A DNA stretch of 64,000 bases from Polyangiales bacterium. Lineage in GTDB: Bacteria > Myxococcota_A > Polyangia > Polyangiales > Polyangiaceae. Position 1 is the first letter of the stretch, and each line of letters starts with the position of its first letter. Below are positions 36,160-54,920 of this stretch, piece by piece. A model generated the notes under the pieces. The model did not search any database and was not told the DNA's origin. It saw only the letters and a list, made by a program, of their open reading frames with translations. The translations under genes were made by a program, and so were the position numbers. Location: contig JBBRLQ010000005.1 of NCBI GenBank assembly GCA_038231275.1, forward strand, positions 1 through 64,000, in the 5' to 3' direction.

Positions 36160-36807
36160 CTAGAGACCGTCGTCCTTTGCGCCGTCGGTGATCCCGAGCT
36201 CGTCCTCGCGCGAGAAGAGGCAACACTCGCTCGCAGGCGGAAAATCGCGGCACGCGCCGGGGCGGTCCGCGTAAATCCCGCAGGTGTTGTCGCGGTGGAG
36301 GTGGTGGCAGCGCTTGTTCGCGCGCAGGGTGAGCACGACGCGGCCGTCCTTGCGACGCGACCACGGCGCGTGGAGGAGCTTCGCGAGCCCGGCGCGGCGG
36401 AAGCGCGCCACGTCCTTTTCGAGCAGGACGACCTCGTTGTCCTTGCAGCACGCGCCGCACGCGAGGCAATCGAGCGCGAGGGTCCGCGTCGCACCGGGAA
36501 AGATCGAGTCGCGCTCGGCGCGGCGGCGCACGATGTCGGTCGAGTCGTCGGGGATCCGCAAAAACGCGAGACCTCGGAGGGCGCCCTTTTGCGCGACGCC
36601 CCAGCGCTGCTTGCCGAGATCGAGCACCGACCAGAGGCCGAGATCGTTCACGTCTCCCCTCTTCGGCCGAGAAAAGACGAGCGTGGCTCGCTCGTGCGCG
36701 TCGAGGATTACGGCGTGCCCGCCGGCGCGGACGTGACGCGCGGCGTTCTCGGCGAAGCGCTCGGCGAACGCGCGGACGATGGGACGAACGAAGGTCGTGG
36801 CGGACAT
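36160..36807 (-). CDS. YkgJ-family Cys-cluster (Zn/Fe-binding) protein
   Basis: CLACGACC; C..L....CGIY..RP.ACR.FP. Confidence 0.85.
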   Translation of the reverse strand: MSATTFVRPIVRAFAERFAENAARHVRAGGHAVILDAHERATLVFSRPKRGDVNDLGLWSVLDLGKQRWGVAQKGALRGLAFLRIPDDSTDIVRRRAERDSIFPGATRTLALDCLACGACCKDNEVVLLEKDVARFRRAGLAKLLHAPWSRRKDGRVVLTLRANKRCHHLHRDNTCGIYADRPGACRDFPPASECCLFSREDELGITDGAKDDGL

Positions 36808-36839: not shown

Positions 36840-37826
36840 ATGAAAGCGATCGTCATCGCCGCGGCCGGAGGCCCCGAGCAGCTCGTCCTTCGCGAGGTTC
36901 CGACGCCTACGCCGAGCAGGGGCGAGGTGCGCGTGCGCGTCCACGCGAGCGCGATCAATCGCGCCGATCTCCTCCAGCGCATGGGCGTCTACCCCGCGCC
37001 GCCCGACGCGCCGCAGGACATCCCGGGCCTCGAGCTCGCGGGCGTCGTCGACGCGCTCGGCGACGGTGTCACGCGCCTCCGCGTGGGCGATCGCGTCTTC
37101 GGTCTCGTCGGCGGCGGCGCGTACGCCGAGCACGTGACGGCCCACGAGCGGACGCTCGCGAAGATTCCGGACGGCCTCTCCTTCACCGACGCCGCCGCGA
37201 TCCCCGAGGCGTTCATCACCGCATACGACGCGATGGTCACGCAGGCGCGCCTGGCCGCCGGAGAGACGGTCCTCGTGACCGCGGTGGGCAGCGGCGTGGG
37301 GACCGCCGCGGTGCAAATCGCGCGCGCGATCGGCGCGACCGCGATCGGCACCTCGCGCACCGCCGACAAGCTCGCCCTCGCCACGCCGCTCGGAATGCGC
37401 CACGGCGTCACCGTCGGCAAGGACGGAAAATTCGCCGACGCCGTACGAAAGCTCACCGGCGACACTGGCGTGGACGTCGTCCTCGAGCTCGTCGGCGGCG
37501 CCTACGTGGAAGAGGACATCGCCTGCCTCGCGCCCCGCGGCCGCCTCGTCCTCGTCGGCCTCCTCGCGGGCGTTCGCGCCGACGTCGACCTCGGCACCGT
37601 CCTCCGCCGTCGCCTCGAAGTGCACGGCACCGTCCTCCGCGCGCGCCCCCTCGAAGAAAAAATCCTCGCCGCGCGGACCTTCGAGCGAAACGTCGTCCCG
37701 CTCATCGCGTCCGGCGCGATGAAGGCGATCGTCGGCAAGACATTCCCCCTCTCCGAAGCCGCCGCCGCCCACGCCTACGTCGCCGGCAACGACGGGTTCG
37801 GCAAGGTCGTGTTGCGAGTTCCGTAG
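36840..37826 (+). CDS. NAD(P)H-quinone oxidoreductase (PIG3/MDR family)
   Basis: INRADLLQRMG.YP.P, PGLE, GGAYAE, PEAFITA, GSGVGTAA, GKVVL. Confidence 0.92.
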   Translation: MKAIVIAAAGGPEQLVLREVPTPTPSRGEVRVRVHASAINRADLLQRMGVYPAPPDAPQDIPGLELAGVVDALGDGVTRLRVGDRVFGLVGGGAYAEHVTAHERTLAKIPDGLSFTDAAAIPEAFITAYDAMVTQARLAAGETVLVTAVGSGVGTAAVQIARAIGATAIGTSRTADKLALATPLGMRHGVTVGKDGKFADAVRKLTGDTGVDVVLELVGGAYVEEDIACLAPRGRLVLVGLLAGVRADVDLGTVLRRRLEVHGTVLRARPLEEKILAARTFERNVVPLIASGAMKAIVGKTFPLSEAAAAHAYVAGNDGFGKVVLRVP

Positions 37827-37938: not shown

Positions 37939-37967
37939 GGAGCCCGTCCCTTTCGGGGACGGGCTCC
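37939..37967. terminator. Hairpin terminator between convergent genes
   Basis: Perfect 12-bp stem GGAGCCCGTCCC / GGGACGGGCTCC with TTTCG loop. Confidence 0.7.
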
Positions 37968-38758
37968 TAGTGGTTGCGGGCGTGCTCGAGGCACAAGTTC
38001 CGGAACGGCTTGCACTTGTCGCAGGTGCACTTGCGGATGTCGGCGCCGTCCTCTTCGAGCTGGCCGCATACGGCGCAAGTGCGGCCGCCGGTCGGCTTCG
38101 TCTCGACCTCCGCCATCGCGCCGCGGCGCGCAGCCTGGCGGACCTGGAGGTTTCGCCCTTTGACCATGCCCGCGAGGGTCCCGCCGAAGAAGAGGAAATA
38201 GTTGGCGAGCGCCGCCGTGATCGCCGCGCGATCGAACCAATCGCCGAGCACCGCCGTGTACACGACGTAGAGGCCCGCCAGGATCCCCAGCCACTTCACG
38301 CGAATGCTGAAGGGCACGAAGATGATCGGATTGAAGGGAAAATCCGGGTACAGCGTCGCGAACGCGAGGAGGCACGACATGTTCAGCCACGAGTTGCCGA
38401 CGGCGTGTCCGGTGATCCACGCGGCGATCGTCGTGCCGACCATCCCGAGAAAATAGAAGAGGTTGAACTTGAGCGGCCCCCACTCGCTCTCGAGGCTCGT
38501 CCCGATCGTCCACGCCCACGAGAGGGAGAAGATGATGAAGAGCAGGCTGTCGGTGCGCGGCAAGAACGCGTAGGTGACGAGGCGCCAGACCTGACCGCGC
38601 GCGACCTCGTGGAGATCGAGCGCGAGCAGCGACGCGTACTCGTGGTTCAATCGCGAGAGCACGAACACGATCGCCATCCCGCCGACGATGAACTGCGTCA
38701 GGTGCTCGATCGCGAATTTTCCGTAGCTGCGCTCGAGCTTCGCGAGGAACCGTTCCAC
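37967..38758 (-). CDS. Rhomboid-superfamily membrane protein without catalytic dyad, with C-terminal Cys/His Zn finger
   Basis: GQVWRLVTY, G..LE..WG...F; no GxSG; tail CAVC..CTCDKC..CLEH. Confidence 0.65.
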   Translation of the reverse strand: MERFLAKLERSYGKFAIEHLTQFIVGGMAIVFVLSRLNHEYASLLALDLHEVARGQVWRLVTYAFLPRTDSLLFIIFSLSWAWTIGTSLESEWGPLKFNLFYFLGMVGTTIAAWITGHAVGNSWLNMSCLLAFATLYPDFPFNPIIFVPFSIRVKWLGILAGLYVVYTAVLGDWFDRAAITAALANYFLFFGGTLAGMVKGRNLQVRQAARRGAMAEVETKPTGGRTCAVCGQLEEDGADIRKCTCDKCKPFRNLCLEHARNH

Positions 38759-38823: not shown

Positions 38824-39399
38824 TCAAGGAGGTGAGCCGCACGTGAGCCAGAGCTTGATCTTCGCGAGATCGGCGGCCGAGACGTCGGGCGTCGGCGCGA
38901 GGGGCATGTGGTTGCCGCACGCGCCTGCCGCGCCCGTCGCGAGCAGGTTGCACGTGATCGCGCTTTGCGTCGGATCGCACGAGGTCGTGAGGTACGGCTT
39001 GCCGTTGATCTTGTAGGCCTTGAGCGCGGCCAACGTCGCCGTCGCATCGGTGAGGCCCGCCGGGCTGTTGCCGCCGGTCGCGTGACAGGCCGTGCCGTTC
39101 GCGCATTTGTACGTGCCGGCCGTGGCCATCAGCGCGGCATAGATGTCCGTCGCAAAGCTCGGGCATCCGGCGGCGTCCGGCGTGCATCCCGACGACGCGC
39201 CGCCGTCACCGCTCGTCCCGCTGCTTCCGCCCGAGTCCGGCGTCGGCGGGGCTTGATCGTCGGGACTGCGACCGGCGAGGCCCCCCGCGGGACCGAAGTG
39301 AGTGGGATCGTCGTTGCAGCCGCCGAACAGCGCGATGCCTGACAGGACGAGCGGCACGAGGACGAGCGCCACCGACTTCCGCTCCAGTCGCGAGGTCAT
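38824..39399 (-). CDS. Putative monoheme c-type cytochrome lipoprotein (planctomycete-cytochrome-like)
   Basis: Lipobox FGGC; CANGTACH (CX5CH); distal HMP and I..W...G C-terminal motif. Confidence 0.6.
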   Translation of the reverse strand: MTSRLERKSVALVLVPLVLSGIALFGGCNDDPTHFGPAGGLAGRSPDDQAPPTPDSGGSSGTSGDGGASSGCTPDAAGCPSFATDIYAALMATAGTYKCANGTACHATGGNSPAGLTDATATLAALKAYKINGKPYLTTSCDPTQSAITCNLLATGAAGACGNHMPLAPTPDVSAADLAKIKLWLTCGSPP

Positions 39400-39616
39400 G
39401 GTCCTATTGTGAAAGGCCGACCCCCGATCGCGCAACGACCTTTGCTGCGAATGCGCCTGCACGACGACGGCGTGGTCCAGGTGGTTCGTCGAAGATCCAC
39501 CGGATGGCTCCATCGCGGAGGCTCGTGTATCCTCAAGCCTCGGCAACATCGCGCCGTCGCACCGCCACGATCGTGGGTGCGTTTGATGCATCGACCGCCT
39601 CCGGGAGAACACCGCC

Positions 39617-39829
39617 ATGCTGGGACGCCTGCTCCTCCTCCTCGCCGTCGCATCCACCCTCGCCACCACCGCGTGCGTGAAGGTCGCCCCCTACGAGCGC
39701 GGCATGCTCGCGCATCCGACGATGACCACCGACGACGTCACCACGGGGCTCGACGAGCACGTTCGCGGCGTCTCCGAAGGGGCCGCGGGCGGCCTCGGTG
39801 GCGGCGGCGGGGGTTGTGGCTGCAACTGA
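39617..39829 (+). CDS. DUF4266-family small lipoprotein
   Basis: Lipobox TTAC; V.PYERG.LA.P.M; H...E; GGGGGCGCN C-terminus. Confidence 0.88.
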   Translation: MLGRLLLLLAVASTLATTACVKVAPYERGMLAHPTMTTDDVTTGLDEHVRGVSEGAAGGLGGGGGGCGCN

Positions 39830-39868
39830 TCGGGCTCACCCGCTGGCAAAGTTCTGTATCGTAACCGC

Positions 39869-42118
39869 GTGGGTTACGTGGAAAGGGTCACGAGCCGTTT
39901 GCCGTCGACGCTCCGTGCCGTTCTAGCGCTGCTCATGGGCCTCGCCTTCGTCGTCGCGTCTCCCCGCGCGTGGGCGGCGGCCGAGGACGCGCGCCTGCTC
40001 GACTCCATCAACCAGGCGATGGCGGACGACTACCCGGGCAACCTCGGCGAGGCCAAGCGCAAGGTCAACGAGGCGCTCGAGAAATGCAAAGGAGGCCGCT
40101 GCGGCAACTCGGCGAAGGCGCAGGGGTTCGTCGCGCTCGGCATGATCACCTCGCAGCTGGGCGACGAGGCGGCCGCGAAGGCCGCGTTCGCCGACGCGCT
40201 CCGCTCCGACCCGCGCGTGAAGCTCCCGTCGAGCGGCACCACGCCGAACATCAAGAACCAGTGGGCCGAGGCCGTCTCACAGGCCGCGCCTCCTCCTGCT
40301 GCCCCTGCGCCCGCCGACGAACCGCCCGCCCCCGTCCCCGAGCCTCCGGCCGCGCCCGCCGCGCCCGCCGCGGGCAGCACGCTTCCGCCCGGGTGGAAGA
40401 GCCGCGAGGCCTTCGATCTCGCGACCGCCGCCGTGAAGGCGCTCGGCGCCGGGCAGTTCGAGGAGTGCGTCGAGAAGAACCGCGGCTCGCTCGAGCGCGA
40501 AGATCGCCCACGCACGCGCCTCGTCATCTCGCGCTGCGAAGAGAAGGTCGGCAGGTACCTCGACGCGCTCAAGGACGCGCAGAAGGCCCTCGAGCTCGGC
40601 ATCAAGACGCGCGACGCCGAGCTCATTCGCTTCGCGCGCCCGCGCGTCGAGGACCTCATCAAGAAGATGCCGCACGTGACCTTCGCCGTCCCCGCGAACG
40701 TCACGATCGCCGAGGTGAAGTTCGACGATCGCAACGTGCCCCTCGACGCGCTCACCAAGAAGTTCTCGATCGATCCGGGCAAGCACCACGTCGCGTCCAA
40801 CGGCCTCGCCGCCGGCGTTCCCGGCGCGATGCAGGACGACTACGACGTGAAGGAGGGCGAGCTCCTCACCGTCCGCCTCGGCCTCCAGCCGCAGCCGGGC
40901 GCGATCACGAAGGGCCAGCTCGACTGCCTCCTCAAGGCGAAGAACGACGAAGAGATCAAGAAGTGCGTCGAGAAGAGCGGCAAGAGCGTCGTGGTGAAGG
41001 CGGCGATCGAGACGAGCGCCTACGCCGACACGAACCACGTCTACGTCTTCTCGCCCGAGCTCATCGCGTCGGTCGTCTCGCCGACCGCCGGCTGGAACAT
41101 CGGCGCCAGCTACCTGCTCGACGTGATCACCGCCGCATCGCCCGACATCGTCTCGGAGGCCTCGCATCGCTTCAAAGAGAAGCGCAACGCGGCGACGCTC
41201 GGCGGCGGGTACAAACCCGGCCAGTTCGGCGTCACCGTCGGCGGGGACATCTCGATCGAGCCCGACTACGTGTCGCGCGGCGTGAGCGCGGCGGTCACCG
41301 GCGATTTCCGCGAGAAGCTCATCACCCCGCGACTCGGCGTGCACTACGCGCACGACACCATCGGCCGCGGCGGCGGCGCGACGACGCCCGGCGCGCCCAC
41401 GCCGTTCGACCATTACTCGAAGACGCTCGACAACACGCAGTTCGACGCCGGCGTCACCTGGGTCTTGTCTCCGACGGCGGTGCTCGTCACGAGCTCGTCG
41501 TTGACGCTCGAGCGCGGTGATCAGAGCAAGCCCTACCGCTATGTGCCGATGTTCGATCCGGTCACCGCCGGCAGGGTGAGGAGTGGGGAAACGGTCGATC
41601 TCGTCAACCGCTTCCGCCTTCCGATTCGCCCGCTCGAGCAGCTCCCGACGGAGCGCAACCGCTACGCCCTCGGCGTGCGCGTCGTAAAGCGCTTAGGCAA
41701 CGCAACCCTACGCATAGAAGAGCGGCTCTACACCGACAGCTGGGCGACCAAGGCCAGCACGACCGACGCGCGGTACATGATGGACCTTTCGCGCCACTTC
41801 CGCGTCTGGCCGCACCTTCGCCTGCACGCGCAGACCGGGACCGATTTCTACAACCGCGCGTACACCGCGATCGTCGATCCTGGCACGCTCGCGATCACGC
41901 TGCCCACGTACCGCACCGGCGACCGTGAGCTCGCGGCGCTCATCACCGCGACCGTGGGCGGAGGCACGCGAATCGCGCTAACCTCTCCAGAGGCGGCCGT
42001 GCAGCTCGCGGTCCTGGTGTCGGGTGACTTCATGTACTCGCGGTTCCTCAACTCGCTCTTCGTGACGACCCGCTCTGCGGTGTACGGTACGGTCGGCTTC
42101 GAAGCGGAGTTCGAGTGA
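39869..42118 (+). CDS. DUF3570-family outer-membrane beta-barrel with N-terminal TPR/PEGA-like domains
   Basis: Y.DT..V.V..P; DVITAASPDIVSEAS; E.DY.S; PYR; E.LP..R.R; R.Y.DSW; GDREL; terminal EAEFE. Confidence 0.8.
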   Translation: MGYVERVTSRLPSTLRAVLALLMGLAFVVASPRAWAAAEDARLLDSINQAMADDYPGNLGEAKRKVNEALEKCKGGRCGNSAKAQGFVALGMITSQLGDEAAAKAAFADALRSDPRVKLPSSGTTPNIKNQWAEAVSQAAPPPAAPAPADEPPAPVPEPPAAPAAPAAGSTLPPGWKSREAFDLATAAVKALGAGQFEECVEKNRGSLEREDRPRTRLVISRCEEKVGRYLDALKDAQKALELGIKTRDAELIRFARPRVEDLIKKMPHVTFAVPANVTIAEVKFDDRNVPLDALTKKFSIDPGKHHVASNGLAAGVPGAMQDDYDVKEGELLTVRLGLQPQPGAITKGQLDCLLKAKNDEEIKKCVEKSGKSVVVKAAIETSAYADTNHVYVFSPELIASVVSPTAGWNIGASYLLDVITAASPDIVSEASHRFKEKRNAATLGGGYKPGQFGVTVGGDISIEPDYVSRGVSAAVTGDFREKLITPRLGVHYAHDTIGRGGGATTPGAPTPFDHYSKTLDNTQFDAGVTWVLSPTAVLVTSSSLTLERGDQSKPYRYVPMFDPVTAGRVRSGETVDLVNRFRLPIRPLEQLPTERNRYALGVRVVKRLGNATLRIEERLYTDSWATKASTTDARYMMDLSRHFRVWPHLRLHAQTGTDFYNRAYTAIVDPGTLAITLPTYRTGDRELAALITATVGGGTRIALTSPEAAVQLAVLVSGDFMYSRFLNSLFVTTRSAVYGTVGFEAEFE

Positions 42119-42687
42119 TGGCACGCACCATCCTCTGGGTCCCCACGAGCGCGTACGCGATCGCGTTCGCCGTGGCGATCGGATCGTGCGCCGATCCCGT
42201 TCATGATCTCCAAGTGAAGGCGCTTGGCGGCGAGGCGCCGAACATCCCCACCGGCGAGTACCACCGCGCCGGCCAGCCCTGCACGACGTGCCACAGCCAG
42301 TACGGGCCCGCGACCTCGCAGTTCGCGATCGGCGGCACCATCTTCCACGGCCCCGACAAGGCCATCGGCGAAGAGGGCGTGCGCGTCGAGATGGTCGACG
42401 CGACAGGCTCGCAGCGCAACGCGACCACCAACTGCGTCGGCAACTTCTTCATCCCGACGTCGGACTGGGATCCGGCGTTCCCGGTGCTCGTCATGATCCG
42501 AAAAGGTCAGCAGACACGGTCGATGAACAGCCACATCGGGCGCGAGGCGTCGTGCAACCAGTGCCACAAGGACCCGCCGAGCTTCGATTCGCCGGGCCAC
42601 ATGTCGCTCGTCGCGGTCGAGGACAACGCGCCGCCGCCGCAGGATTGCCCTGTGAGCCCCGTCGCGACCCTCCCGGGGTCCAGATGA
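42118..42687 (+). CDS. Diheme c-type cytochrome lipoprotein
   Basis: Lipobox IGSC; H.AGQPCTTCH and CNQCH; start overlaps the DUF3570 stop. Confidence 0.75.
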   Translation: MARTILWVPTSAYAIAFAVAIGSCADPVHDLQVKALGGEAPNIPTGEYHRAGQPCTTCHSQYGPATSQFAIGGTIFHGPDKAIGEEGVRVEMVDATGSQRNATTNCVGNFFIPTSDWDPAFPVLVMIRKGQQTRSMNSHIGREASCNQCHKDPPSFDSPGHMSLVAVEDNAPPPQDCPVSPVATLPGSR

Positions 42688-43265
42688 AGATCCTCGCGCA
42701 GAGACCGGTGGACAAGGGCCGCGTCGCCGCCGCCGCGATCGTGGTGGGCATCTTCGCCGCGGCCGCGTGCGTGTCGGTCCCGGACACCGAGCGCATGACG
42801 TACGTGGGGCCGCTCCCCAATGGGCAGACCGTGGCGCCGGACTTCGCCTCGTACAAGACCGGCGTGGACCCGTACCTCGGCAAGCGCTGCTCGACGCTCG
42901 ACTGCCACGGGCAGCTCGGTCGCGGCCTTCGCCTCTTCAGCCAGCAGGGCCTCCGCGCGTTCGACGCGTCGGGCAACGGATCCTTTCCGCTCACGAGCGG
43001 CAAGGACGCGATCACCGACGACGAGGTGCGGCAGAACTTCCTCGCCGTCGTCGGCCTCGAGCCAGAGGTCATGACGCAGGTGATGGCGGGCGGCGGCGCC
43101 GATCCGTTGAAGCTCCTCCTCCTCAAGAAGCCGCTCCTCTACGAGGGCCACAAGGGCGGACAGGTGATGATCGACACCTCCGACCCCGGCTACAAGTGCA
43201 TCGCGAGCTGGCTGGCGGGCTCGCTCGACACCAACGCGTGCACCAAGTCGCTCGAAGTGCGCTGA
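42684..43265 (+). CDS. Putative monoheme cytochrome lipoprotein (CX4CH)
   Basis: Lipobox AAAC; CSTLDCH; LL.KP...HKGG distal His; W near C-terminus; ATGA overlap. Confidence 0.6.
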   Translation: MKILAQRPVDKGRVAAAAIVVGIFAAAACVSVPDTERMTYVGPLPNGQTVAPDFASYKTGVDPYLGKRCSTLDCHGQLGRGLRLFSQQGLRAFDASGNGSFPLTSGKDAITDDEVRQNFLAVVGLEPEVMTQVMAGGGADPLKLLLLKKPLLYEGHKGGQVMIDTSDPGYKCIASWLAGSLDTNACTKSLEVR

Positions 43266-43280
43266 CGCAAAGCGTACGAC

Positions 43281-43321
43281 AAAAGAGAAACGCCCCGGGC
43301 GAGCTCGTCGCGCCGGGGCGT
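43281..43321 (-). terminator. Rho-independent terminator for the minus-strand operon
   Basis: ACGCCCCGG...CCGGGGCGT stem followed on the minus strand by TTCTCTTTT. Confidence 0.65.
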
Positions 43322-43341
43322 CGCTTCGTCTGCGTGCCGCC

Positions 43342-44736
43342 TCAGGTCACGACCGCGTTGACGAGGCCGGGGAACGCGGGACCGCGGTAGAAGTCCTGCA
43401 CGCGGCGGAGATCGCCCTTCGCGACGGCGAACGCGGCAGCGGCGGCGGCCGTGGGGCCCATCGACGCGGTCGTGATGGTGTTGCCGTTGGTCGCGACGTT
43501 GTTGCCGGTCTGCGGGTCGAACGTGTTGACGCTGTTGTTCGCGCCGTACGATCCGAACCACCCCGTCTTGAGGTAGCCGGCGCCGTAGACGTAGAGCCAG
43601 TTGGCGTTGCCGTTCGTGTTGTCGGGCCAGCCGCTGCGCTCGAGCGGATCCTTCGGGAGATCTCCGCCGATCGTCATGACGAGGTTGTCGGCCAGGCTCT
43701 TCGAAGAGCAGCCCGGGTCCGGCGTCGCGAGCGCCATGGTCATGAACGCGTCGAAGTGCTTGCCGAGCGCCATGGCCATGTCCGCCGGCATCTGATCGCC
43801 GCCGCCGAACGCGCCGTGCGGATCGTCCAAAAATGGGCTCATGTTGACCATCGACGTCAACCCGAGCTTGAACGCCTTCAGCGCCGTGATGAGCGTGTGC
43901 GCATGGTCCTTCAGCGCCGTCGAGGTGCCGGCGTTGACGCCGAATGCTGCGTCGTCCGCCGCCGTGGGGGCGAGCTGCGCCGCGAGGTTCTTGCCGAGGA
44001 GGTTCGCGGCGATTTTGCCGGTCTCGTAGCCCTTCGCGACCGACGGGCGGCCGGCGGCGGCGTTGAGGCCGAGGAACGCCTTGTAATACGCCTCGTGCAG
44101 CGCCGCGTTGCTCGGCGTGCTCAGGAGCGTCTTGCTCGCGACGCTGTCGAACAGGCCGACGAGGCCCGCCGCGCTGCCGACGCTGGCCATCGACGGAGCG
44201 CCGGGCGCGGTGCCGTAGATGGTCGGGTTGATGGCGATGACGGGGAGGAGCGTCGGCGTCGCCTGCTGAATCGCGGCGAGCGCGGCGAGGAGGCCCACGC
44301 CGGTCGCGATCTCGTGCTTGGGCGTGTTGGTGTGGCCGCCGTTGTTGCCGCCCATGAGGCCGGTCATCTGTCGGTTGCCGGGGAGCGTCGCGAACGGCGA
44401 GTAGGTGCCGCGCACCCACGGGCGATCGGTGCCCGTGACCGCCTTGCCCTTGCCGATCTCGTAAAACGCGTAGTTCGCTTGCGTCCCGGTGGCCTGCTCT
44501 ACGTGCGGGAAGAGCAGCGTGTACCAGGAGAGCGCGCCGTTGCCGGCGTTGATGTGGATCGAGCGGTTCGTGAGGGTGCACGCCGCTTGATCGGCGAGCG
44601 CGCTGCCTCCGATGCCCGAGAGCGCGTCGATGAAGCGCACGCGCTCGAGGCCGAGCCCGACCGCCGCCGCCGCGCTCCACCGGATGAAGTCTCGTCGGCC
44701 CGAGCCGCGCAGATCTTTGAGTCGCTGGTCCGCCAT
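43342..44736 (-). CDS. Tat-exported protein, DUF1501-like
   Basis: Twin-arginine GRRDFI; GGH; DDPHG; GDLPKDP; WPD; operon with DUF1549/1585-like cytochrome. Confidence 0.6.
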   Translation of the reverse strand: MADQRLKDLRGSGRRDFIRWSAAAAVGLGLERVRFIDALSGIGGSALADQAACTLTNRSIHINAGNGALSWYTLLFPHVEQATGTQANYAFYEIGKGKAVTGTDRPWVRGTYSPFATLPGNRQMTGLMGGNNGGHTNTPKHEIATGVGLLAALAAIQQATPTLLPVIAINPTIYGTAPGAPSMASVGSAAGLVGLFDSVASKTLLSTPSNAALHEAYYKAFLGLNAAAGRPSVAKGYETGKIAANLLGKNLAAQLAPTAADDAAFGVNAGTSTALKDHAHTLITALKAFKLGLTSMVNMSPFLDDPHGAFGGGDQMPADMAMALGKHFDAFMTMALATPDPGCSSKSLADNLVMTIGGDLPKDPLERSGWPDNTNGNANWLYVYGAGYLKTGWFGSYGANNSVNTFDPQTGNNVATNGNTITTASMGPTAAAAAAFAVAKGDLRRVQDFYRGPAFPGLVNAVVT

Positions 44737-44747
44737 GACGATTCTCC

Positions 44748-45440
44748 TTACTCGCAGGTGTGAGCGGCTTCGAGGAGCGCCGCGATGGCAAGTTGAACGC
44801 CCTGGGCCTGGGTCGCCCCGCCCGTGACGGCGTCGACGACGGCCTGGTTCGCGACGGTGACGTGGTCGTCGGTCGCCAGCGTCCCCGTGAGGCACGAAAT
44901 CCCGTCCTTCGTGAACTTCCCGCTCGCGTCGGCGACGATCACGCCCTGGCAGCCCGTGGACGTCGCCGCGTTGGCGAAGACCTCGGGCGCCGCCGCCACG
45001 AAGATGTCGAACTGCTTCGCGAGCGCGCTCGTCGACGCGAGGAGCGCCTCGGGCGCGCGGCCCGAGTAGTTCGCGACGCCGAGCGACGAGCCGCTCGACT
45101 TGTAGATCGTGAGCGCGTTCGTGTTGCCGGTGAGCTTCGCGCCGCGCGTGTTCAGGATGGACCCGAGCGACGCGTACGTGATCTTCGTGCAGCCGTGGTA
45201 CCGCGCCGCCGTTACGCCGCCGGTGGGATCCGACGCCTTCGGTCGGCCGCCCGGATCGGCGTGCTCGTACTCGCCGACTTGGTTCGGCGGGTCGAAATCG
45301 TGGTGGTACATCGGCGACGAGCCCTGCGTGTCGGCCTCGGTCGCGCTGCCGATCTTGTCGTTGGGTCCGCTGCCGGCGGCCGAGCACCCGCTGGCGGCGA
45401 GGCCGGCGGTGGCGATGAGGGTCAGAAGAATGCGTTTCAT
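44748..45440 (-). CDS. Hypothetical lipoprotein with several His/Cys
   Basis: RBS GGAG; lipobox ASGC; YHHD, YHGC, AHTCE. Confidence 0.7.
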   Translation of the reverse strand: MKRILLTLIATAGLAASGCSAAGSGPNDKIGSATEADTQGSSPMYHHDFDPPNQVGEYEHADPGGRPKASDPTGGVTAARYHGCTKITYASLGSILNTRGAKLTGNTNALTIYKSSGSSLGVANYSGRAPEALLASTSALAKQFDIFVAAAPEVFANAATSTGCQGVIVADASGKFTKDGISCLTGTLATDDHVTVANQAVVDAVTGGATQAQGVQLAIAALLEAAHTCE

Positions 45441-45459
45441 TGGAGTCTCCTTTTCCCTC

Positions 45460-46713
45460 TCAGAATTTCGTGAAGTCTTCGGACGTGAACACGTTACGGA
45501 TGACGCGCTTCAGCTTCATCCCGTTGCCCGTGAAGTCTTTCACGAGAGGATCGGTGACGGCAGGCGGAATCGACGCGAGGTCGTTCACGATGTCGCCGCG
45601 CGAGAGCGCCCAGTTCCAGACGCGGTCGACGGCGCAGTGGGCCACGGCGGGGTCGGCGGCGATCGCCGCGCCGAGCGACGGAATGTCGGTCACCGCGACG
45701 CCGTTGCGCCACGCGAACGTCTGCTTGCCGGCGGGGAGCCAGTCGCCGAGGACCGAGGTGGGGTTGCCGGTCGACGGCGTCTTCACCTGGATGGCGGTCT
45801 GGTACGCGCCGTTCGCGTCGAAGAACGCGAACATCGGCGCCATGTGGTTGATCGTCGTGTGGCAGTTGGCGCAGATGATCGAGCTCGTGTCCTGGAAGTC
45901 GATTTTCGCGTTCGGCGTGTTCGTCTTTCCGGTGACGGTCTGGAAATCCCAGGGGCTCGTGTAGAGGCCGGCGCCCATCGGCGTCGACGCGCCGAGCTCG
46001 GCGGGGAACTTCGTGCAGGCGAAGGTCTCCTGGATGAAGCGGACGCGGCGGAAGGCCATGTTCGCGTAGAACTGCGACATGAGGCCGGGGTCGGTGAGGA
46101 CGCCGGCGGTGGGCGCCGTGCCCGGACAGCTCGCGGGGGTGAAGGTGCCGCCCGCGTACGTCGGGCAGGTGTTCGTCGCCGTCGTGAAGAGGTCGGTGTA
46201 CGGCTGGTCGTTGATGACGACCATCGCCGCGAACGTCGCCGCGGTGTCGTAGCTCGGCGCGCCTTGCCTCGCGTTGCCGCCCATCGGGCCGGTGCGGAAC
46301 GTGTCGCGGAACCACTGGATCATGCGCGTCGCGAAGCGCGGGTCGCTCGTGAGGATCTTGTCGATGTACGCCTCGTAGGTGACCTTCTGGTCGGCCTGCG
46401 CCTTGCCGTCGAGCGTCTTCACGTCCGCGAGCGTCGGGAGCTCGCCCGTGAGCTTGAGGCTCGCGCTGCGCATCGCCGCGCCGTAGTCGAACACGCGGGT
46501 GTCGACGTACGCGGGGGGCTGCTCGACGGGCCCGCCAGAAGCGCCGCCACCGCCGCCGCCGCCGCCTGCGCCACCACTGGAGCCCGGGTCACCGGAGGTG
46601 CCGCCGTTGCCGAGCGCGTTCGGGTCGTCGGACCCCGAGCCGCACGCCATCAGCGATGCCGCGATGCCGAGCGCGGCGAGCTTCGCGCTGAGTCGCAGAA
46701 TGCTTCGTCGCAT
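45460..46713 (-). CDS. Monoheme lipoprotein, DUF1549/DUF1588/DUF1585-like
   Basis: Lipobox LMAC; R.ASLKLTGELPT; AGVLT; FRRV; CANCH..I; C....W.WALSR; LK.VI.....S..F. Confidence 0.65.
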   Translation of the reverse strand: MRRSILRLSAKLAALGIAASLMACGSGSDDPNALGNGGTSGDPGSSGGAGGGGGGGGASGGPVEQPPAYVDTRVFDYGAAMRSASLKLTGELPTLADVKTLDGKAQADQKVTYEAYIDKILTSDPRFATRMIQWFRDTFRTGPMGGNARQGAPSYDTAATFAAMVVINDQPYTDLFTTATNTCPTYAGGTFTPASCPGTAPTAGVLTDPGLMSQFYANMAFRRVRFIQETFACTKFPAELGASTPMGAGLYTSPWDFQTVTGKTNTPNAKIDFQDTSSIICANCHTTINHMAPMFAFFDANGAYQTAIQVKTPSTGNPTSVLGDWLPAGKQTFAWRNGVAVTDIPSLGAAIAADPAVAHCAVDRVWNWALSRGDIVNDLASIPPAVTDPLVKDFTGNGMKLKRVIRNVFTSEDFTKF

Positions 46714-46763
46714 CGTGTGCCTGCCTTTCTGTTCCGCGTGCCGTTCCATGGCCATTGTCTCTT

Positions 46764-48029
46764 TCATTCGCCGGCGAGCCAGCTGTTGATCTGCGCGGTG
46801 TAGCCACCCACGTCGCTGACGGTGCCGCCGCCGTGGTTTCCGCTCTGCCCCGTCGGGTGCAGGATGATGGCGCTCTTGGTCTTGTCGGTAAGGTTCACCT
46901 TCGTAAGCGCCTGGGCGCACGCCGAGGCGTAGTTGGGGGAGCCCCCCACGAGATCGTTCAAGTCGAGCGCGCCGTCGCCGCCGCCGCCGGCCTTGTGGCA
47001 GCCGGCCGTGCAGTTCGGCGTGAGCGCGTTGCCGTTCACCTGGCCGCCGCGGAACACGTCGGCGATCGCCTGGAAGCCCGACACGTTCTTGCAGCCGCCG
47101 CCGCCCGCGCCCGCGTCGCCGCCCGCGACGGTGCCCGCGCCGATCTTGGCGAACTCGATCTGGAGCTTGTCGGTCGCCTGCCAGTTGAAGCCGGTGAGGA
47201 TGAACGTGCCGGGGCCGACGGCGATCGACTTGCCTGCGCCAGCGGTGTCGTCGACGTTCGAGCCGTTGTCGGCCGGATCCTCGACCGCCTTCGCCGTGGC
47301 GTCGGCGGGGACCTGCACGAAGATCGGGTGCGTGATGTGGATGCCGCCCGCCGCGGGCCCGACCAGCTTCACCGAGCTGAGCGCGAGGATCTTGCCGGAG
47401 ATGGTCGCGTTGAACGTGATCTGCGCGCCGGGAATGCCGCCGGAGACCGTGCTCAGATCGATCGCGTTGGCTGCGCCGCCGACGATCGCGATCGGCGCCG
47501 TCGCCGGGAGCTTCGCGCCCTTCAGCGCGGCCGCTTCGACGTCGAGCCACTTCTTGACCTTGTCGCCGAGGTTGCCGGTGCCGTCGGGAGTGACGAGCGC
47601 CGCGCCCGTGTGCTGGCCCTTCGTGAAGAGGCGGCTCTGGAGCGTGTCCTGAACGATGATCTTCTTGTCGCCGACCTGTGACGTGTCGTACGTCTTGATC
47701 GAGAGGTACGTGTCCGGCCCCTTGAGCCAGAGCGGCGCCGAGGTGCTGCCCTCGTGGCAGTTGGACCCGCCGCACGACGTCTTGAGGTCCGGCTCGAGCT
47801 CGCGGTACAGCTTCTCGGCGAGCTTGAGCGCCGTCGCATTGCCGCCGTCGGGATCGAGGAGGCTGCCGTCGCCGGGATCGACCGTTCCACTGTCGACCGC
47901 GCCGCTCGACCCGCCGCCGCCGTTGCCGCCGAGGAGGCTGTCGGCCGCTCCGTCTCCGCACGCGACCGCCGTGACTGCCGCGAGAGCGATCGCGCCGGTG
48001 AGAAGGGCGAACGCACGCGACGCGAGCAT
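46764..48029 (-). CDS. Putative diheme cytochrome lipoprotein with non-canonical motifs
   Basis: Lipobox AVAC; CGGSNCH with distal GQHTG; CTAGCH with distal GNHGGG; each domain ends W-L. Confidence 0.6.
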   Translation of the reverse strand: MLASRAFALLTGAIALAAVTAVACGDGAADSLLGGNGGGGSSGAVDSGTVDPGDGSLLDPDGGNATALKLAEKLYRELEPDLKTSCGGSNCHEGSTSAPLWLKGPDTYLSIKTYDTSQVGDKKIIVQDTLQSRLFTKGQHTGAALVTPDGTGNLGDKVKKWLDVEAAALKGAKLPATAPIAIVGGAANAIDLSTVSGGIPGAQITFNATISGKILALSSVKLVGPAAGGIHITHPIFVQVPADATAKAVEDPADNGSNVDDTAGAGKSIAVGPGTFILTGFNWQATDKLQIEFAKIGAGTVAGGDAGAGGGGCKNVSGFQAIADVFRGGQVNGNALTPNCTAGCHKAGGGGDGALDLNDLVGGSPNYASACAQALTKVNLTDKTKSAIILHPTGQSGNHGGGTVSDVGGYTAQINSWLAGE

Positions 48030-48390
48030 CCCCTTTCCAGTACGGCTGCGATCCAGTTTCACGGTCATTTTCAGCGGTCCGTGCACGATGAATGCACAGG
48101 TGAGACCAACCCGATCACACTGAAAATTCCGGACGTATTTGATGAGCCTACATCGTAGCTATCGACGTCGCTGGATCATCGTCGACCGCCCAGATGGCCC
48201 ATGCAACGGCAGCTTTCGAGCATGGACGGAGCCCGATCCACGTCGCCATCCGGCGCGCGGCGAGCGTCCTCCAACCCGTCATGTCCACCCGTCACTGCTA
48301 TGGTGTGAGGAGGTGCTGCGGCGGTTGCAGCGAAGTGCCGTGACCTCGCCGCGGACGTGAAGGAAACCCGAGGACGCGGCCATTCTTCGG

Positions 48391-49383
48391 GTGGGGGTTG
48401 AAGCAAGCGTCGTGGACCAGCCGGAGCCTCCCAAGATCGTGCTCGAGCAGCCGGCGCCGTGCCTGGACGGACGCGCCGCGCAGGAGGTGCTCGTCCGCAC
48501 GCTCGCGCCGAGTCAGGCGCCGGGCGCGGCATGGACGGTGAGCGCGCGCGTGAGGAGAGATCGCACCGCGCTCGTCGCCGAAGGTGAGATCACCGACAGC
48601 GTCGGCGCGGCGGTCGCCCATCGCTCCATTCGCAAAGACACGACCGAGTGCAGCGGCGTCGTGCGCGCGCTCGGCGTGTGGGCGTCGCTGGTGCTCGACG
48701 AGGAAGTGCGTCGCGCCGCTGCGCCTCCGCCTCCTCCTCCTCCCGAGCCCGAGACGAGAGCGCCGTGGCCGTCGCCCGAGCCGCCCGCGGCGGCGGCGCC
48801 CGAGCAAGCGCTCTTCCTCAAGAACCCGAAAGACAGGCGCTCGTTCGAGATCGGGATGGGGACCAGCTACCAGTATGGCCTGCTCGGCGACGGCGGCGCC
48901 GCCATCGGCGGCGGTCACGTGTTCACGGTCTTCGAGATCGACGGCGGGTGGTTCCTTCGTCCGACGATCGCGGCTGGGCGATCGCTGCGCGACGTTGCGG
49001 CGTCGTCCGATCTGAGCGCGACATGGGGCGCGGCGCGCTTCGACGCGTGCCGGCGGATGCCTGGAAACTACACGGAACGTCGCGGCATCCAGATGGACGT
49101 GTGCGGCGGCATCGAGAGCGGCCTTCTCGCGTTCGACTCCGGCGGCAACGGCCGGAGCCCGACGGCGGGTCAGGTGCAAAAGGACGTGACGCCGCTGCTC
49201 GCTCCTGGCGCGTCGCTGGGCCTTCGCGGCGAGCTTGCGAGCGATCTCTCCGCCGAGGTGCGTGGCCTCGTCGGCGTCAATCTTCTGCGCGATACGTTTT
49301 ACGAGAGCCCCGACGGCGTGAAGCTCCAGACCTTGCTCGTGTACGCGCGCCTCGAGCTCGCAGTTTCGTGGAGGGTGCGGTGA
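48391..49383 (+). CDS. Hypothetical protein with C-terminal beta-barrel-like domain (ECF cassette)
   Basis: Cys pair N-domain, Pro linker, alternating beta strands ending SWRVR; start uncertain. Confidence 0.55.
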   Translation: MGVEASVVDQPEPPKIVLEQPAPCLDGRAAQEVLVRTLAPSQAPGAAWTVSARVRRDRTALVAEGEITDSVGAAVAHRSIRKDTTECSGVVRALGVWASLVLDEEVRRAAAPPPPPPPEPETRAPWPSPEPPAAAAPEQALFLKNPKDRRSFEIGMGTSYQYGLLGDGGAAIGGGHVFTVFEIDGGWFLRPTIAAGRSLRDVAASSDLSATWGAARFDACRRMPGNYTERRGIQMDVCGGIESGLLAFDSGGNGRSPTAGQVQKDVTPLLAPGASLGLRGELASDLSAEVRGLVGVNLLRDTFYESPDGVKLQTLLVYARLELAVSWRVR

Positions 49384-49970
49384 TCGAAGATACCGGCGCT
49401 GTCGAGCGCACGTCGATTACGTCGGTTCCCGCCGTGGCGCCGAACGCCGCGTCGCGCGAGTCGATCTTCCGCTCGATGTACGAGGCCCACGTCGACTTCG
49501 TGTGGCGAAATTTGCGGCGCCTCGGCGTCGAGCTCGGCGACGTCGACGACAAGACACAAGAGGTCTTCGTCATCGCGCACCGCCGGTTCGTCGAGTTCGA
49601 GGATCGCGGCCACGGTCCGCGCGCGTGGCTCTTCCAGATCGTCATCCGCGTCGCGTCCGACGCGCGCCGCCACAAGCGCCGCCACCCTGAGGATCCCGAC
49701 AGCGGCAAGCTCCTCGAGCGCGAGTCGATCGAGCCGCCGCAAACGCAGGCCCTCGCGCGCCGCGAAGCGCTCGAGCGCCTGGACCGCGCGCTCGGCACCC
49801 TCGAGGTCGGCCGCCGCGCCGTCCTGGTCCTCCACGAGATCGAAGAAATGACCGCACCGGAAATCGCGCAGAGCCTCGGAATTCCCCTCAACACCGTTTA
49901 CTCGCGCCTCCGCGTGGCGCGCGCCGAGCTCGAAGCGGCGCTGTCCCGCCAGGAAGGAGCCTCACGATGA
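49380..49970 (+). CDS. ECF RNA polymerase sigma factor
   Basis: FVWRNLRRLG, D.TQEVF, AWL..I, EIA..LGIP.NTVYSRL..AR. Confidence 0.93.
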   Translation: MIEDTGAVERTSITSVPAVAPNAASRESIFRSMYEAHVDFVWRNLRRLGVELGDVDDKTQEVFVIAHRRFVEFEDRGHGPRAWLFQIVIRVASDARRHKRRHPEDPDSGKLLERESIEPPQTQALARREALERLDRALGTLEVGRRAVLVLHEIEEMTAPEIAQSLGIPLNTVYSRLRVARAELEAALSRQEGASR

Positions 49971-50740
49971 GCGATCTCTCGACGAGCACCCGCGCCCTTT
50001 TGGACGCCGCGAAAGCGGACGGACCGTCCAAGCTGGCGAAGGCGAAAATCTGGGGAGGCGTGGCGGCGACGACGGCGGCGGCGGCCGGGGGCGGAGCCGC
50101 GGCAGGGAGCGTGGCGGCGTTCGGCTCGGGCAAGCTGCTGATGTTCGGCGCGCTGTTCGGGAGCGCGGTGACGGTCGGTCTCGCGATGGCGCTGATGCAC
50201 GTGGGTCCGATGTCGCCGGAGATCACCGAGCCGCGCGCGGACATGCAGCTCGCGACGCCGCGGCCGGTGCGGGATCCGGCGGCGCCGGCGCAGCCGATTC
50301 GTGCGGGTGGGCCGCAGGACGATCTCACCGTGGAGCAAGACGACGCGCCCGTGGCGACGCCGGTGGGGAACGCCAACGCAGGCGCAAACGCAGCGCCGAA
50401 GGCGGCGCCGGCGGTGGTCGTGAATCCGGCGCAGGGTGCGGCGGCGTCGAAGGCAAAGGCCGCGACCGCGAAGGCGGCGAGGACCGCGGCGGAGAAGGAC
50501 GATCTGCTCGAGCGCGAGTCGCTCCTCGTGTCCGAAGCGCGCGGGGCGCTGGTTCGTGGAGATGCGCGCGCGGCGTTGTCAGCGGTCCACGCGGCGCAGG
50601 CGCTCGACAGCCACGCGCTCGACCCGGAAGAGCTGTCGCTCGAAGCGCGCGCGCTGCGTGCGATGGGAAGCACGGACGCGGCGGACGCGGTCGAATCGCG
50701 CTTGCGGACGCGTTACCCCGATCACGCGCTCGCGCGCTGA
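49967..50740 (+). CDS. Putative anti-sigma factor (TM plus C-terminal TPR-like)
   Basis: ATGA overlap with the sigma gene; TM; Pro/Ala linker; LERE...AR.AL..GD...RYP. Confidence 0.65.
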   Translation: MSDLSTSTRALLDAAKADGPSKLAKAKIWGGVAATTAAAAGGGAAAGSVAAFGSGKLLMFGALFGSAVTVGLAMALMHVGPMSPEITEPRADMQLATPRPVRDPAAPAQPIRAGGPQDDLTVEQDDAPVATPVGNANAGANAAPKAAPAVVVNPAQGAAASKAKAATAKAARTAAEKDDLLERESLLVSEARGALVRGDARAALSAVHAAQALDSHALDPEELSLEARALRAMGSTDAADAVESRLRTRYPDHALAR

Positions 50741-51053: not shown

Positions 51054-52295
51054 CTACTGCCCGCCGTCGATCTTCCCCCGCAAAATCCTCGCGGCCTCCC
51101 GGTACGCCGGCCGATCCGGAAACAGCAGCGCCAGCTGGTCGTACGCCAGCGCCGCGCGCTCGTATTGCCCATTCGCGACGAAGTCGACCGCTTGCCGCTC
51201 CAGCGTGCGCTGCGTCCCGTTCGTCGTCGTCGGAAGCGCCGTGACCGACGCGGGCGGCAGAGGAACGCTCGGCAGCGACGAAAGGCTGATCGTCGGAGGC
51301 ACAGTCGCCGATGGGACCGCGCTCGCGGCGTCGTTCATCGTCATCGCGCTCGGCACAGCCGCGCCCCCATCGACGATCGCGACGGGTGTAGCCACGGGCA
51401 CCTCCTCGTCGTCCGCGATGAAGAGGAAGTAAAGCGACACGAGCAACGCCGGCAGCAGCGCGACGAGGATCTTCTTCGGCCCCGTCAGCTCGTCCCACTT
51501 TTGCTTGATCAGCTCGAGCTGCGGGTTTTGTATGCGGTTCGTCTGCACCGTCGGCGCTTGCGTCGAGCGCACCGGCGAGGCTCCCGGCAACGGACCGGAC
51601 GGCGGTGCGCGTCGCGTTCCGAACGGCGTCGGGACCACGAGGCCCGGCTGGCGCGTCGTCTCGCCGAGCTCCGGCGGCAAGGGAACGGGCGCGCCCTTCG
51701 CCATGCGCTGCGTTTGATCGAACGGTGGCCTTAGCAAATGCGCGGGCGTGGGGATTTCCTCCAACGGCGGACCCGGCGGCGGGGGAGGGGGCAGCGGAGG
51801 AAGCGGAAGATTTCCCCCCCGTGCGCTCATCGGCGACGGCGCGTCGAGCGGCTGCACGCGCGTCGACTCGCTCTCGGGCCGCCGCGCGAACGCGCCGGGC
51901 TTGAACGGCCGCGCGATCTGCGGCGCCGGACGATCCACGACCGCGGTCGCCTGATCGTCCAGATCCGGCTCTTCGGTGTACGTCGCTCGAAAATGAAGCC
52001 GCGCCGAGCCCATCTCGATTTTGCAGGGCGGCGACACGCTCGTCCACGTGCGCCCGATCGGCTGCCCGTGCGCGATCACAGGACTCCGTTCATCCACGCT
52101 CTGGAGAAAGAACCGCTTACCGTCGAAATACACGTAGCCGTGCACGTCGAGGATGCCGCTGCCCTCGATGCGCCACATGCCGCGCTTGCCGACGCTCATC
52201 GGTGAGAGCACCTGGCCGCGTGGTATCGCGATGAACGGCGGATCGGCGATGCCGATCTCCACCTCCACCACGAGCTCCTCCGACGGATCAGCCAT
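51054..52295 (-). CDS. FHA-like domain membrane protein with Pro-rich linker and C-terminal TPR
   Basis: SVG....W.I.G.G....H (degenerate FHA); TM; A...Y.QL. Confidence 0.6.
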   Translation of the reverse strand: MADPSEELVVEVEIGIADPPFIAIPRGQVLSPMSVGKRGMWRIEGSGILDVHGYVYFDGKRFFLQSVDERSPVIAHGQPIGRTWTSVSPPCKIEMGSARLHFRATYTEEPDLDDQATAVVDRPAPQIARPFKPGAFARRPESESTRVQPLDAPSPMSARGGNLPLPPLPPPPPPGPPLEEIPTPAHLLRPPFDQTQRMAKGAPVPLPPELGETTRQPGLVVPTPFGTRRAPPSGPLPGASPVRSTQAPTVQTNRIQNPQLELIKQKWDELTGPKKILVALLPALLVSLYFLFIADDEEVPVATPVAIVDGGAAVPSAMTMNDAASAVPSATVPPTISLSSLPSVPLPPASVTALPTTTNGTQRTLERQAVDFVANGQYERAALAYDQLALLFPDRPAYREAARILRGKIDGGQ

Positions 52296-54029: not shown

Positions 54030-54031
54030 GC

Positions 54032-54916: not shown

Positions 54917-54920
54917 GGCG

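Follow-up and report, generated by a model that had tools for sequence, protein, structure and literature searches.

Two described systems of the bacterial envelope come close to the genes discussed here. In the parts of the paper drawn on here, Meheust et al. (2021, eLife, PMC8238504) report that DUF3570 proteins are flavinylated by ApbE at two [S/T]GA[S/T] motifs, that the usual cluster contains ApbE, a thioredoxin-like protein, a DUF4266 protein with a CXC motif and often DsbD, and that flavins and cytochromes substitute for each other across systems. The second concerns PSCyt genes. Passages in He et al. (2017, PMC5615132) link them with carbohydrate-binding modules and sulfatases, note their high frequency in certain genomes of Verrucomicrobia and state that their function is unknown. 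Analysing 64,000 nucleotides from a soil myxobacterium of the class Polyangia (Polyangiales bacterium, assembly GCA_038231275.1, contig JBBRLQ010000005.1, positions 1 to 64,000; the whole stretch is called the window below), we observed relatives of both systems side by side, as two adjoining sets of exported, haem-motif-rich genes. The reading we favour, with about even confidence, is that these are two separately conserved exported modules whose link is optional and not obligate: module 1 would be a variant of the extracytosolic DUF4266/DUF3570 redox system that bears cytochromes, and module 2 would represent, in compact form and in a myxobacterium, the planctomycete-type pairing of a PSCyt protein with a Tat-exported one.

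The window has a G+C content of about 70%, and genes were therefore called by third-position G+C (GC3 frame plot) combined with translation of the open reading frames (ORFs). Between positions 38824 and 48029 this resulted in nine contiguous genes, here lettered A to I (Table 1), in three transcription units: A is read leftward, B-C-D-E rightward and I-H-G-F leftward. A together with B-C-D-E makes up module 1, and I-H-G-F module 2. In the translations, A, B, D, E, G, H and I start with lipobox-type signal peptides, C with a cleavable signal peptide and F with the twin-arginine (Tat) signal SGRRDFIRW. The TGA stop of C overlaps the ATG start of D by one base, and D and E share the four bases ATGA, so that C, D and E appear translationally coupled. 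Candidate start codons for C lie at 39869, 39878 and 39935; for I, an alternative start at 48068 would give a protein of 434 residues and agrees with the position of the sigma-54-type element discussed below. An earlier interpretation of this DNA, made from the letters and their ORFs (the sequence-only reading), had likewise described nine contiguous genes in three transcription units, export signals on all products and a DUF3570 gene coupled to two haem-motif lipoproteins, and the gene calls and translations agree with it on each of these points. It was also right that a Tat protein is present; this protein, F, lies mid-region and not at the 48029 end.

The C-x(2-5)-CH motif occurs seven times in the 2,924 residues of the nine proteins (two motifs each in D and I, one each in A, E and H), exactly as counted in the sequence-only reading, and not once in the other 48 called proteins of the window (16,512 residues). 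Shuffled versions of the nine proteins contain 0.086 motifs on average, and seven were reached in 0 of 2,000 shuffles. All seven motifs are kept in relatives. In D, a conserved His-x-x-x-x-(P/S)-C stands before each CXXCH; both motifs are found in 19 of the 19 sequences from the loci and the window, and all 120 database homologues contain at least two CXXCH. E carries an invariant RRCxTLDCHG, a CX4CH motif (21/21 sequences), as well as HKGG. The Cys, the Cys-His and a Met-Pro of A are kept in 12/12 sequences, with the spacing C-x5-CH in the window protein (Cys99-His106) and C-x4-CH in most relatives; CX4CH is counted among the haem-binding motifs in current surveys, as a passage of PMC10734462 has it. 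The CANCH of H (Cys281, Cys284, His285) is present in 75/75 sequences, and in I Cys86, Cys91 and His92 are found in 67/67, Cys340 in 90% and Cys344 and His345 in 99%, while the same 67 sequences also share two invariant distal His residues beside the motifs, His140 in the N-terminal and His399 in the C-terminal domain. Being exported and carrying conserved CXXCH or CX3-4CH-type motifs, A, D, E, H and I answer to the sequence description of c-type cytochromes and are treated here as predicted ones, so that haem motifs in these five lipoproteins, also claimed earlier, are borne out and extend to the relatives. Among the Pfam cytochrome models, members of the I family are matched, and A, D and E have no match above the cut-off; Pfam scans revealed no cytochrome c maturation genes among the proteins of the 64 kb window.

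For the comparison of gene order, 80 loci were retrieved with an alignment of 32 F homologues from species-representative genomes. Gene presence was scored with family hidden Markov models (HMMs) against six-frame ORFs, start codons in the loci being picked by similarity, and for six loci (L008, L019, L023, L026, L027 and L035) presence is based on tblastn and HMM hits. All 80 loci are from Myxococcota, mostly from Polyangiaceae, Labilithrix and Kofleriaceae records. I-H-G-F keeps one strand and one order in 80/80 loci: F and G are found in all 80, H in 77 (the three misses lie at contig ends) and I in 69, where nine of the 11 misses lie at contig ends and only L026 and L046 truly lack I. Module 1 behaves differently. 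Where the contig allows, C, D and E always occur together, and B precedes C wherever the contig reaches; A was found in 11 loci (family HMM, E-values 2e-50 to 6e-68). Only 20 of the 80 loci have B-C-D-E in the flank that was retrieved, within 10 kb of module 2. It is missing from 35 loci whose downstream flank measures at least 9 kb and from 12 with 3-9 kb, and another 12 loci are too short to be scored. The sequence-only reading had taken the nine genes as one system, which these numbers contradict, and had named a lack of co-conservation of the two convergent operons in relatives as the outcome that would speak against it; this is what is seen in part, since 35 loci are without B-C-D-E and 20 are with it.

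Several observations nevertheless connect the two modules, which neighbour each other in three arrangements: tail-to-tail as in the window, and as in L031 and L080. L031 belongs to a different F clade, whose sister loci are without module 1, and there A-B-C-D-E is co-directional and stands two genes beyond F. L080 carries, divergent from I, a DUF4266 gene, an E homologue (CX4CH, hhalign probability 93.6%) and a DUF3570 gene in a row. The latter (4150-5997, minus strand, of that locus) encodes a protein of 615 residues in which a CXXCH-bearing domain at the N-terminus is followed by an internal hydrophobic stretch and then by the DUF3570 domain. This fusion argues that haem proteins act directly with the DUF3570 family; the CXXCH domain shows no significant similarity to D (hhalign probability 2.7%). 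The last two ORFs beside it were dropped as Arg/Ala-rich shadow frames. Furthermore, A and the N-terminal haem domain of I are homologues (probability 96.1% and E 3e-9 in hhalign), and two upstream elements are shared. A sigma-54-type -24/-12 element stands at a similar distance upstream of I in 47/66 loci, upstream of B in 5/14 and in 11/280 control upstream regions, and the word GATCCA[CG] lies within 200 nt upstream of B in 10/14 loci and of I in 45/66, fractions that overstate the evidence because related loci are not independent. As a putative shared regulatory site, GATCCA[CG] is a weak lead. Taken together, the L031 and L080 arrangements and the homology of the haem domains of A and I make it plausible that in this lineage the modules cooperate, presumably through these related domains.

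Against our reading a number of points have to be set. The loci lacking B-C-D-E were mentioned above; moreover, a single 29-row clade of the F tree, a quick maximum-likelihood version with midpoint root only, contains 20 of the 21 adjacent cases, with the window counted among the 21, and these adjacent loci have also conserved the genes for a rhomboid protein, a zinc-type dehydrogenase, a CxxCxxCC protein and the Tad pilus, so that inherited gene order explains most of the adjacency. B-C-D-E and I-H-G-F converge, and no shared transcript is therefore possible. The covalent haem of A, D, E, H and I is deduced from motifs, and the barrel of C from features of its sequence. E resembles the N-terminal domain of I weakly (hhalign 47%) and A not significantly (hhalign probability 1%). 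Matches of F to DUF1501 (PF07394) or DUF1552 were obtained for 0 of 32 members at E≤1. GATCCA[CG], finally, also precedes 51 of the 280 controls (18%) and occurs 29 times in the whole window against 18.3 expected, a mild excess. Much of this could be accommodated if the modules were functionally independent and stood side by side merely through gene order kept in one Polyangia lineage, an explanation we regard as possible, though somewhat doubtful. In its favour it can also be held that among the 20 adjacent loci only 12 have B-C-D-E less than 1 kb from F, and that in the other eight 2.2-9.4 kb of unrelated genes lie between them (39 such genes in 10 loci, heterogeneous and nearly all of singleton families). 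The two further arrangements, one in another F clade and one divergent with a cytochrome-fused DUF3570, the homology of A to the N-terminal domain of I, the GATCCA[CG] enrichment upstream of both operons and the I-type -24/-12 element in some B upstream regions speak against it.

At the other extreme, all nine genes might form one porin-cytochrome-like conduit, with cytochromes in or on the DUF3570 barrel wiring the Tat enzyme to the cell surface. The translational coupling of D and E to the DUF3570 gene, the haem domain fused to DUF3570 in L080, the export signals on all nine products and the recurring juxtaposition of the modules are in line with such a conduit; one or two haem motifs per protein make no multihaem wire, the DUF3570 domain has only about 378 residues and the modules are not co-conserved in most loci, and we consider the proposal quite unlikely. 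The nine genes could also serve one envelope electron path as an optional add-on, leading from a sigma-54-controlled Tat enzyme complex in the periplasm (F-H-G with the dihaem I) via the related monohaem lipoprotein A and the D/E cytochromes to a DUF3570 outer-membrane protein that would have haem partners as well as FMN (flavin mononucleotide) on its Gly-less sites, and ending at the Cys-x-Cys tail of DUF4266. We advance this path as a speculation of low probability.

Within module 1, B is a DUF4266 protein (PF14086; 57.5 bits, cut-off 27) ending in GGGGGGCGCN, a Cys-x-Cys tail, the C-terminal GCGCN being identical in 15/15 sequences. C matches DUF3570 (PF12094; 87.2 bits, cut-off 25) over residues 432-697, corresponding to profile positions 112-374 of 427. 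Its layout comprises an N-terminal TPR region (profile matches to solved TPR proteins, E 4e-17), a Pro/Ala linker, a Cys-rich middle part and the DUF3570 domain at about residues 372-749, whose amphipathic beta segments, together with a C-terminal ...EFE, are consistent with a predicted outer-membrane beta-barrel. The DUF3570 domain was found in at least 1,176 clusters in a word-indexed search, which covers the close subfamily only, and in 995 representative clusters at E≤0.001 in an exhaustive representative search; the D family, with at least 1,349 homologous clusters without a Pfam domain, one of them named 'mono/diheme cytochrome c family protein' by its source, is of similar size. No Pfam or NCBIfam family was obtained for A, E or G, with Pfam families in 0/11 members of A and 0/20 of E. 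The match between D and I in hhalign runs mainly over the signal peptide and a haem motif. The assignment of A, E and I as PSCyt1 domains was tried and dropped, as Pfam did not support it and the I family matches Cytochrome_CBB3 and Cytochrom_C instead.

The sequence-only reading had named ApbE and a TlpA-type thioredoxin as the usual partners of DUF3570 and DUF4266, which parts of PMC8238504 document, and had noted that both are missing here. Indeed, ApbE, thioredoxin-like proteins and DsbD were found neither among 46 other proteins of the window (E≤1e-5) nor, by Pfam, among the nine, a result that holds for these 64 kb only. To call the system undescribed, as was done there, goes too far, because DUF3570 is a proven substrate of ApbE flavinylation according to passages of the same paper (PMC8238504). 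If module 1 is a cytochrome-bearing variant of that system, the c-type haems of D, E and perhaps A would replace the DsbD/thioredoxin route as periplasmic electron input, from where electrons would go to the outer-membrane DUF3570/DUF4266 pair. Instead of exporting electrons in general, module 1 might handle iron at the outer membrane, by reducing it or taking it up. Neither an iron transporter nor a TonB-dependent receptor or siderophore gene adjoins B-C-D-E in the window, and none of these is among the recurrent neighbour families scanned; we give the idea very little credence.

The flavinylation sites of DUF3570 deserve particular attention. At the matching place C reads DVITAAS-P-DIVSEAS, where neither [S/T]GA[S/T] motif has kept its Gly (the residues are T-A-A-S and S-E-A-S), so that the window DUF3570 lacks the two canonical motifs, while the Asp, the Ala and the acceptor Ser are invariant or nearly so in 25 aligned subfamily sequences. 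Of 120 close homologues, 118 have the Gly-less tandem, and none shows the canonical D..[ST]GA[ST]. One of the more distant representatives, P0320, reads DVISGAS followed by DVVSAAS, the only case of SGAS at the first site among the 82 longer representatives listed, and thereby fixes the correspondence of Gly-less and canonical sites. The L080 protein has a canonical DIWTGAS first and a Gly-less DVRTAAT second. A tblastn search of plasmids for a canonical flavinylated DUF3570 to compare with gave no match. In a Klebsiella fumarate reductase, replacement of the motif Gly by Ala left about 50% flavinylation, according to a passage in the review PMC12052999, and Gly-less sites may thus still be modified. 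Judged by these residues, the sites D-x-x-T-A-A-S and D-x-x-S-x-A-S may carry FMN if the genome encodes ApbE elsewhere; alternatively, they may be relics, haem having taken over. In the former case the known substrate range of ApbE would widen, and in the latter we would be dealing with a natural case of haem replacing flavin within one system.

Module 2 is essentially single- or low-copy, and among the retrieved records it is confined to Polyangia and Kofleriaceae; the loci L023 and L027, as well as L025 and L028, come pairwise from one assembly, so that some Polyangium genomes hold two copies of I-H-G-F. I consists of an N-terminal CX4CH domain and a C-terminal CXXCH domain, and its family matches Pfam Cytochrome_CBB3 in 19/23 members (best E 4e-7) and Cytochrom_C in 10/23. 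The loci L026 and L046 are sisters with a full upstream flank, in which H-G-F stands without this dihaem lipoprotein. In L044 (Minicystis rosea, 6531-7724) the I homologue matches two adjacent ORFs (E 2e-100 and 3e-45), suggesting a frameshift, a sequencing error or a split gene. The window protein H reaches 31.3 bits with PSCyt2 (cut-off 29.8), and 22.8 with PSCyt3 and 17.9 with PSD2, both below their cut-offs; at E≤0.1, PSCyt2 and PSCyt3 are found in 26/26 members of its family and PSD2 in 21/26. H therefore belongs to the PSCyt/PSD (DUF1549/DUF1588/DUF1585) group, and the DUF1549-type cytochrome protein that the sequence-only reading had named as a usual partner of DUF1501 is present. G shows a conserved R-x-H-x-C-x-K and four conserved Cys residues. 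It has no Pfam family and no PDB relative, an Atlas search with a G homologue led to unnamed Myxococcota clusters only, and hhalign found no similarity of G to H or to I beyond the signal peptide.

F homologues carry the Pfam TAT_signal in 31/32 cases and an RR within the first 30 residues in 120/120; the family amounts to at least 734 clusters, all annotated as 'hypothetical', with the Tat signal as sole Pfam domain. The stored Atlas model of the F homologue P0090 (52% identical) superimposes on a DUF1501 cluster with TM scores of 0.67/0.68 over 399 residues and on a DUF1552 cluster with 0.54. The 'DUF1501-like' Tat protein of the sequence-only reading is thus supported in its Tat signal and, through the P0090 model, in a likeness of predicted fold, and not in its sequence, for which no member of the family matched the DUF1501 model; we treat the fold as a lead. 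The conserved polar residues of F are His61, Asn132, His135, Thr136, Asp304-Asp305-Pro306-His307, Asp359, Lys362 and Asp372. In a PSCyt-type module, F would be the catalytic subunit with a DUF1501-like (alkaline-phosphatase-superfamily-like) fold, H its haem-binding partner, I an electron carrier and G a disulfide-rich accessory lipoprotein, all of them tethered to membranes and facing the periplasm.

DUF1501 belongs to the alkaline-phosphatase-like superfamily. Module 2 could consequently be hydrolytic or transferring in nature, F being an enzyme of that superfamily with the PSCyt protein as substrate-binding or sensing partner, and act on an envelope or prey-derived polymer, a role proposed before for PSCyt genes of planctomycetes and verrucomicrobia. 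The fold lead from P0090 to DUF1501 favours this, as do the conserved polar residues, which to us look more like a metal site than like a redox-cofactor site, and the linkage of PSCyt genes with sulfatases and carbohydrate-binding modules, as far as the passages in PMC5615132 go. Three conserved haem motifs in I and H, encoded in the same operon, are to be weighed on the other side, and neither a glycoside hydrolase nor a sulfatase or carbohydrate-binding gene adjoins the operon in any clade. Furthermore, the Tat route is typically, though not exclusively, used by redox proteins that bear a cofactor. On balance, we regard a hydrolytic module 2 as unlikely. An FGE-sulfatase (formylglycine-generating-enzyme-like) domain protein is encoded about 20 kb from F and may be of interest if F is an alkaline-phosphatase-superfamily enzyme.

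Upstream of I, the GG/GC spacing and the conserved position of the element TGGTCTCACCTGTGCA suggest a predicted sigma-54-type promoter. The palindrome CTACGATGTAG lies further upstream and is possibly an activator or bending site; the 7-mers ATGTAGG and CCTACAT each are among the commonest words upstream of I, in 11/66 loci. A gene for an extracytoplasmic function (ECF) sigma factor (Pfam Sigma70_r2/r4), divergent from I and placed between two unknown genes, adjoins module 2 in the window. This trio or parts of it lie beside I in L002, L014, L015, L042, L050 and L055; in L052 only the sigma factor does. Within the 6-8 kb of downstream flank of L014 and L015 there is no module 1. Because of this neighbour, an ECF-type promoter GGAA[CT]-N15-19-GTC was tried and rejected, being found upstream of I in 2/66, of B in 0/14 and of A in 1/12 loci. 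In the Labilithrix-like clade (L042, L050, L052, L055), the region upstream of B holds a conserved GCTATACT, which is not a -24/-12 element, and L051 a TATAAT, suggesting a different promoter type for module 1 in this clade. A scan of the window for sigma-70 promoters and terminators gave matches at chance level only, and Rfam none. Profile searches of the PDB yielded no significant solved relative of F, G, H, D, I or the DUF3570 domain; among the nine proteins, such relatives are limited to the TPR repeats of C.

Beside A lie genes for a rhomboid-domain membrane protein with a Cys-rich C-terminal tail, a zinc-type dehydrogenase and a CxxCxxCC-domain protein, which are co-conserved beside module 1 in 5-14 loci. 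On the side of I, the window contains a pilus cluster of the Tad/Flp type, in which a secretin, RcpC/CpaB and a TPR protein are encoded together with two proteins of the T2SSF family and two T2SSE ATPases, one of which has an FHA domain. About 15 related loci likewise have portions of this cluster on the I side, which shows that gene order is conserved on a large scale in the lineage.

Table 1. Genes A to I, upstream elements and neighbouring genes in the window (positions are those of the 64,000-nucleotide stretch)
Feature	Position	Strand	Length	Description
A	38824-39399	-	191 aa	Lipoprotein with haem motif; divergent from B
B	39617-39829	+	70 aa	DUF4266 lipoprotein
C	39869-42118	+	749 aa	Signal peptide, TPR extension and DUF3570
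D	42118-42687	+	189 aa	Lipoprotein with dihaem motifs
E	42684-43265	+	193 aa	CX4CH lipoprotein
F	43342-44736	-	464 aa	Tat-signal protein; final gene of the I-H-G-F operon
G	44748-45440	-	230 aa	Cys-rich lipoprotein without haem motif
H	45460-46713	-	417 aa	PSCyt/PSD lipoprotein
I	46764-48029	-	421 aa	Two-domain lipoprotein, predicted cytochrome c
TGGTCTCACCTGTGCA	48093-48108	-		Predicted sigma-54-type -24/-12 element upstream of I; GG-N10-GC spacing; unique in the window
CTACGATGTAG	48148-48158	-		Palindrome upstream of the -24/-12 element
GATCCAC	39494-39500	+		Word in the A/B intergenic region
FGE-sulfatase domain gene	22776-23426	+		Formylglycine-generating-enzyme-like
CxxCxxCC gene	36160-36807			CxxCxxCC-domain protein
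Dehydrogenase gene	36840-37826			Zinc-type dehydrogenase
Rhomboid gene	37967-38758			Rhomboid-domain membrane protein
Neighbour of the sigma factor gene	48412-49383	+		Unknown gene
ECF sigma factor gene	49434-49970	+		Sigma70_r2/r4
Neighbour of the sigma factor gene	50111-50740	+		Unknown gene
Tad cluster	52288-63660	-		Tad/Flp-type pilus cluster

Both modules belong to large families of unknown function, and their Polyangia versions are small, low-copy and sharply defined, which makes them convenient entry points for genetics and biochemistry: module 2 offers four genes whose order is fixed and whose promoter type can be recognised, and module 1 cytochromes where ApbE and thioredoxin usually stand. 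Should the optional electron path from module 2 to the DUF3570/DUF4266 pair be true, it would constitute a hybrid flavin-haem-thiol conduit across the myxobacterial outer membrane and provide a first function for the DUF3570 family as well as for the PSCyt/DUF1501-like family.

How, then, does the locus compare with known systems? In porin-cytochrome complexes such as MtrAB of metal-reducing bacteria, the wire is a multihaem cytochrome of 8-10 haems that sits in a large outer-membrane barrel. Module 1 bears a mere resemblance to MtrAB/MtrCAB in that a gene for an outer-membrane-type, beta-rich protein lies beside genes for predicted periplasmic c-type cytochrome lipoproteins, and in the idea that electrons cross the outer membrane. 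In contrast to MtrAB, it contains no multihaem cytochrome (D has two motifs, E one, and no protein more than two), and beyond weak haem-motif hits there is no sequence relation to MtrA or MtrB, so that the porin-cytochrome-like conduit suggested in the sequence-only reading is not supported in the MtrAB sense.

Module 2 has in common with the planctomycete and verrucomicrobial pairs of PSCyt-PSD and DUF1501/DUF1552 proteins that H combines PSCyt2, PSCyt3 and PSD2 with a CXXCH, and that it shares an operon with a Tat protein of about 460 residues, whose predicted fold is similar, as judged by the P0090 model. It differs from these pairs in that F matches neither Pfam model (0/32), that H is a short lipoprotein with PSCyt2 and PSCyt3 in 417 residues, that the operon is extended by the conserved genes for I with its two haem motifs and for G with its many Cys, and that it has a sigma-54-type promoter element, a low copy number and, among the retrieved records, a distribution limited to Polyangia and Kofleriaceae.

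The literature searched describes neither variant, with the supplementary cluster tables of PMC8238504, which possibly list such clusters, lying outside that search. As far as the parts of PMC8238504 drawn on here describe the DUF3570-DUF4266 flavinylation system, module 1 is like it in the DUF4266 protein with a C-terminal CXC adjoining DUF3570, both being exported, and in a tandem motif at the same place of the domain with Asp, Ala and acceptor Ser kept. It is unlike it in lacking genes for ApbE, a thioredoxin-like protein and DsbD within 64 kb, in motifs without Gly, in the 370-residue TPR and Cys-rich N-terminal extension of C, and in D and E being translationally coupled to DUF3570, with a third haem-motif lipoprotein, A, alongside. 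Each of the two modules is in our opinion a so far unstudied version of a known, poorly understood envelope system.

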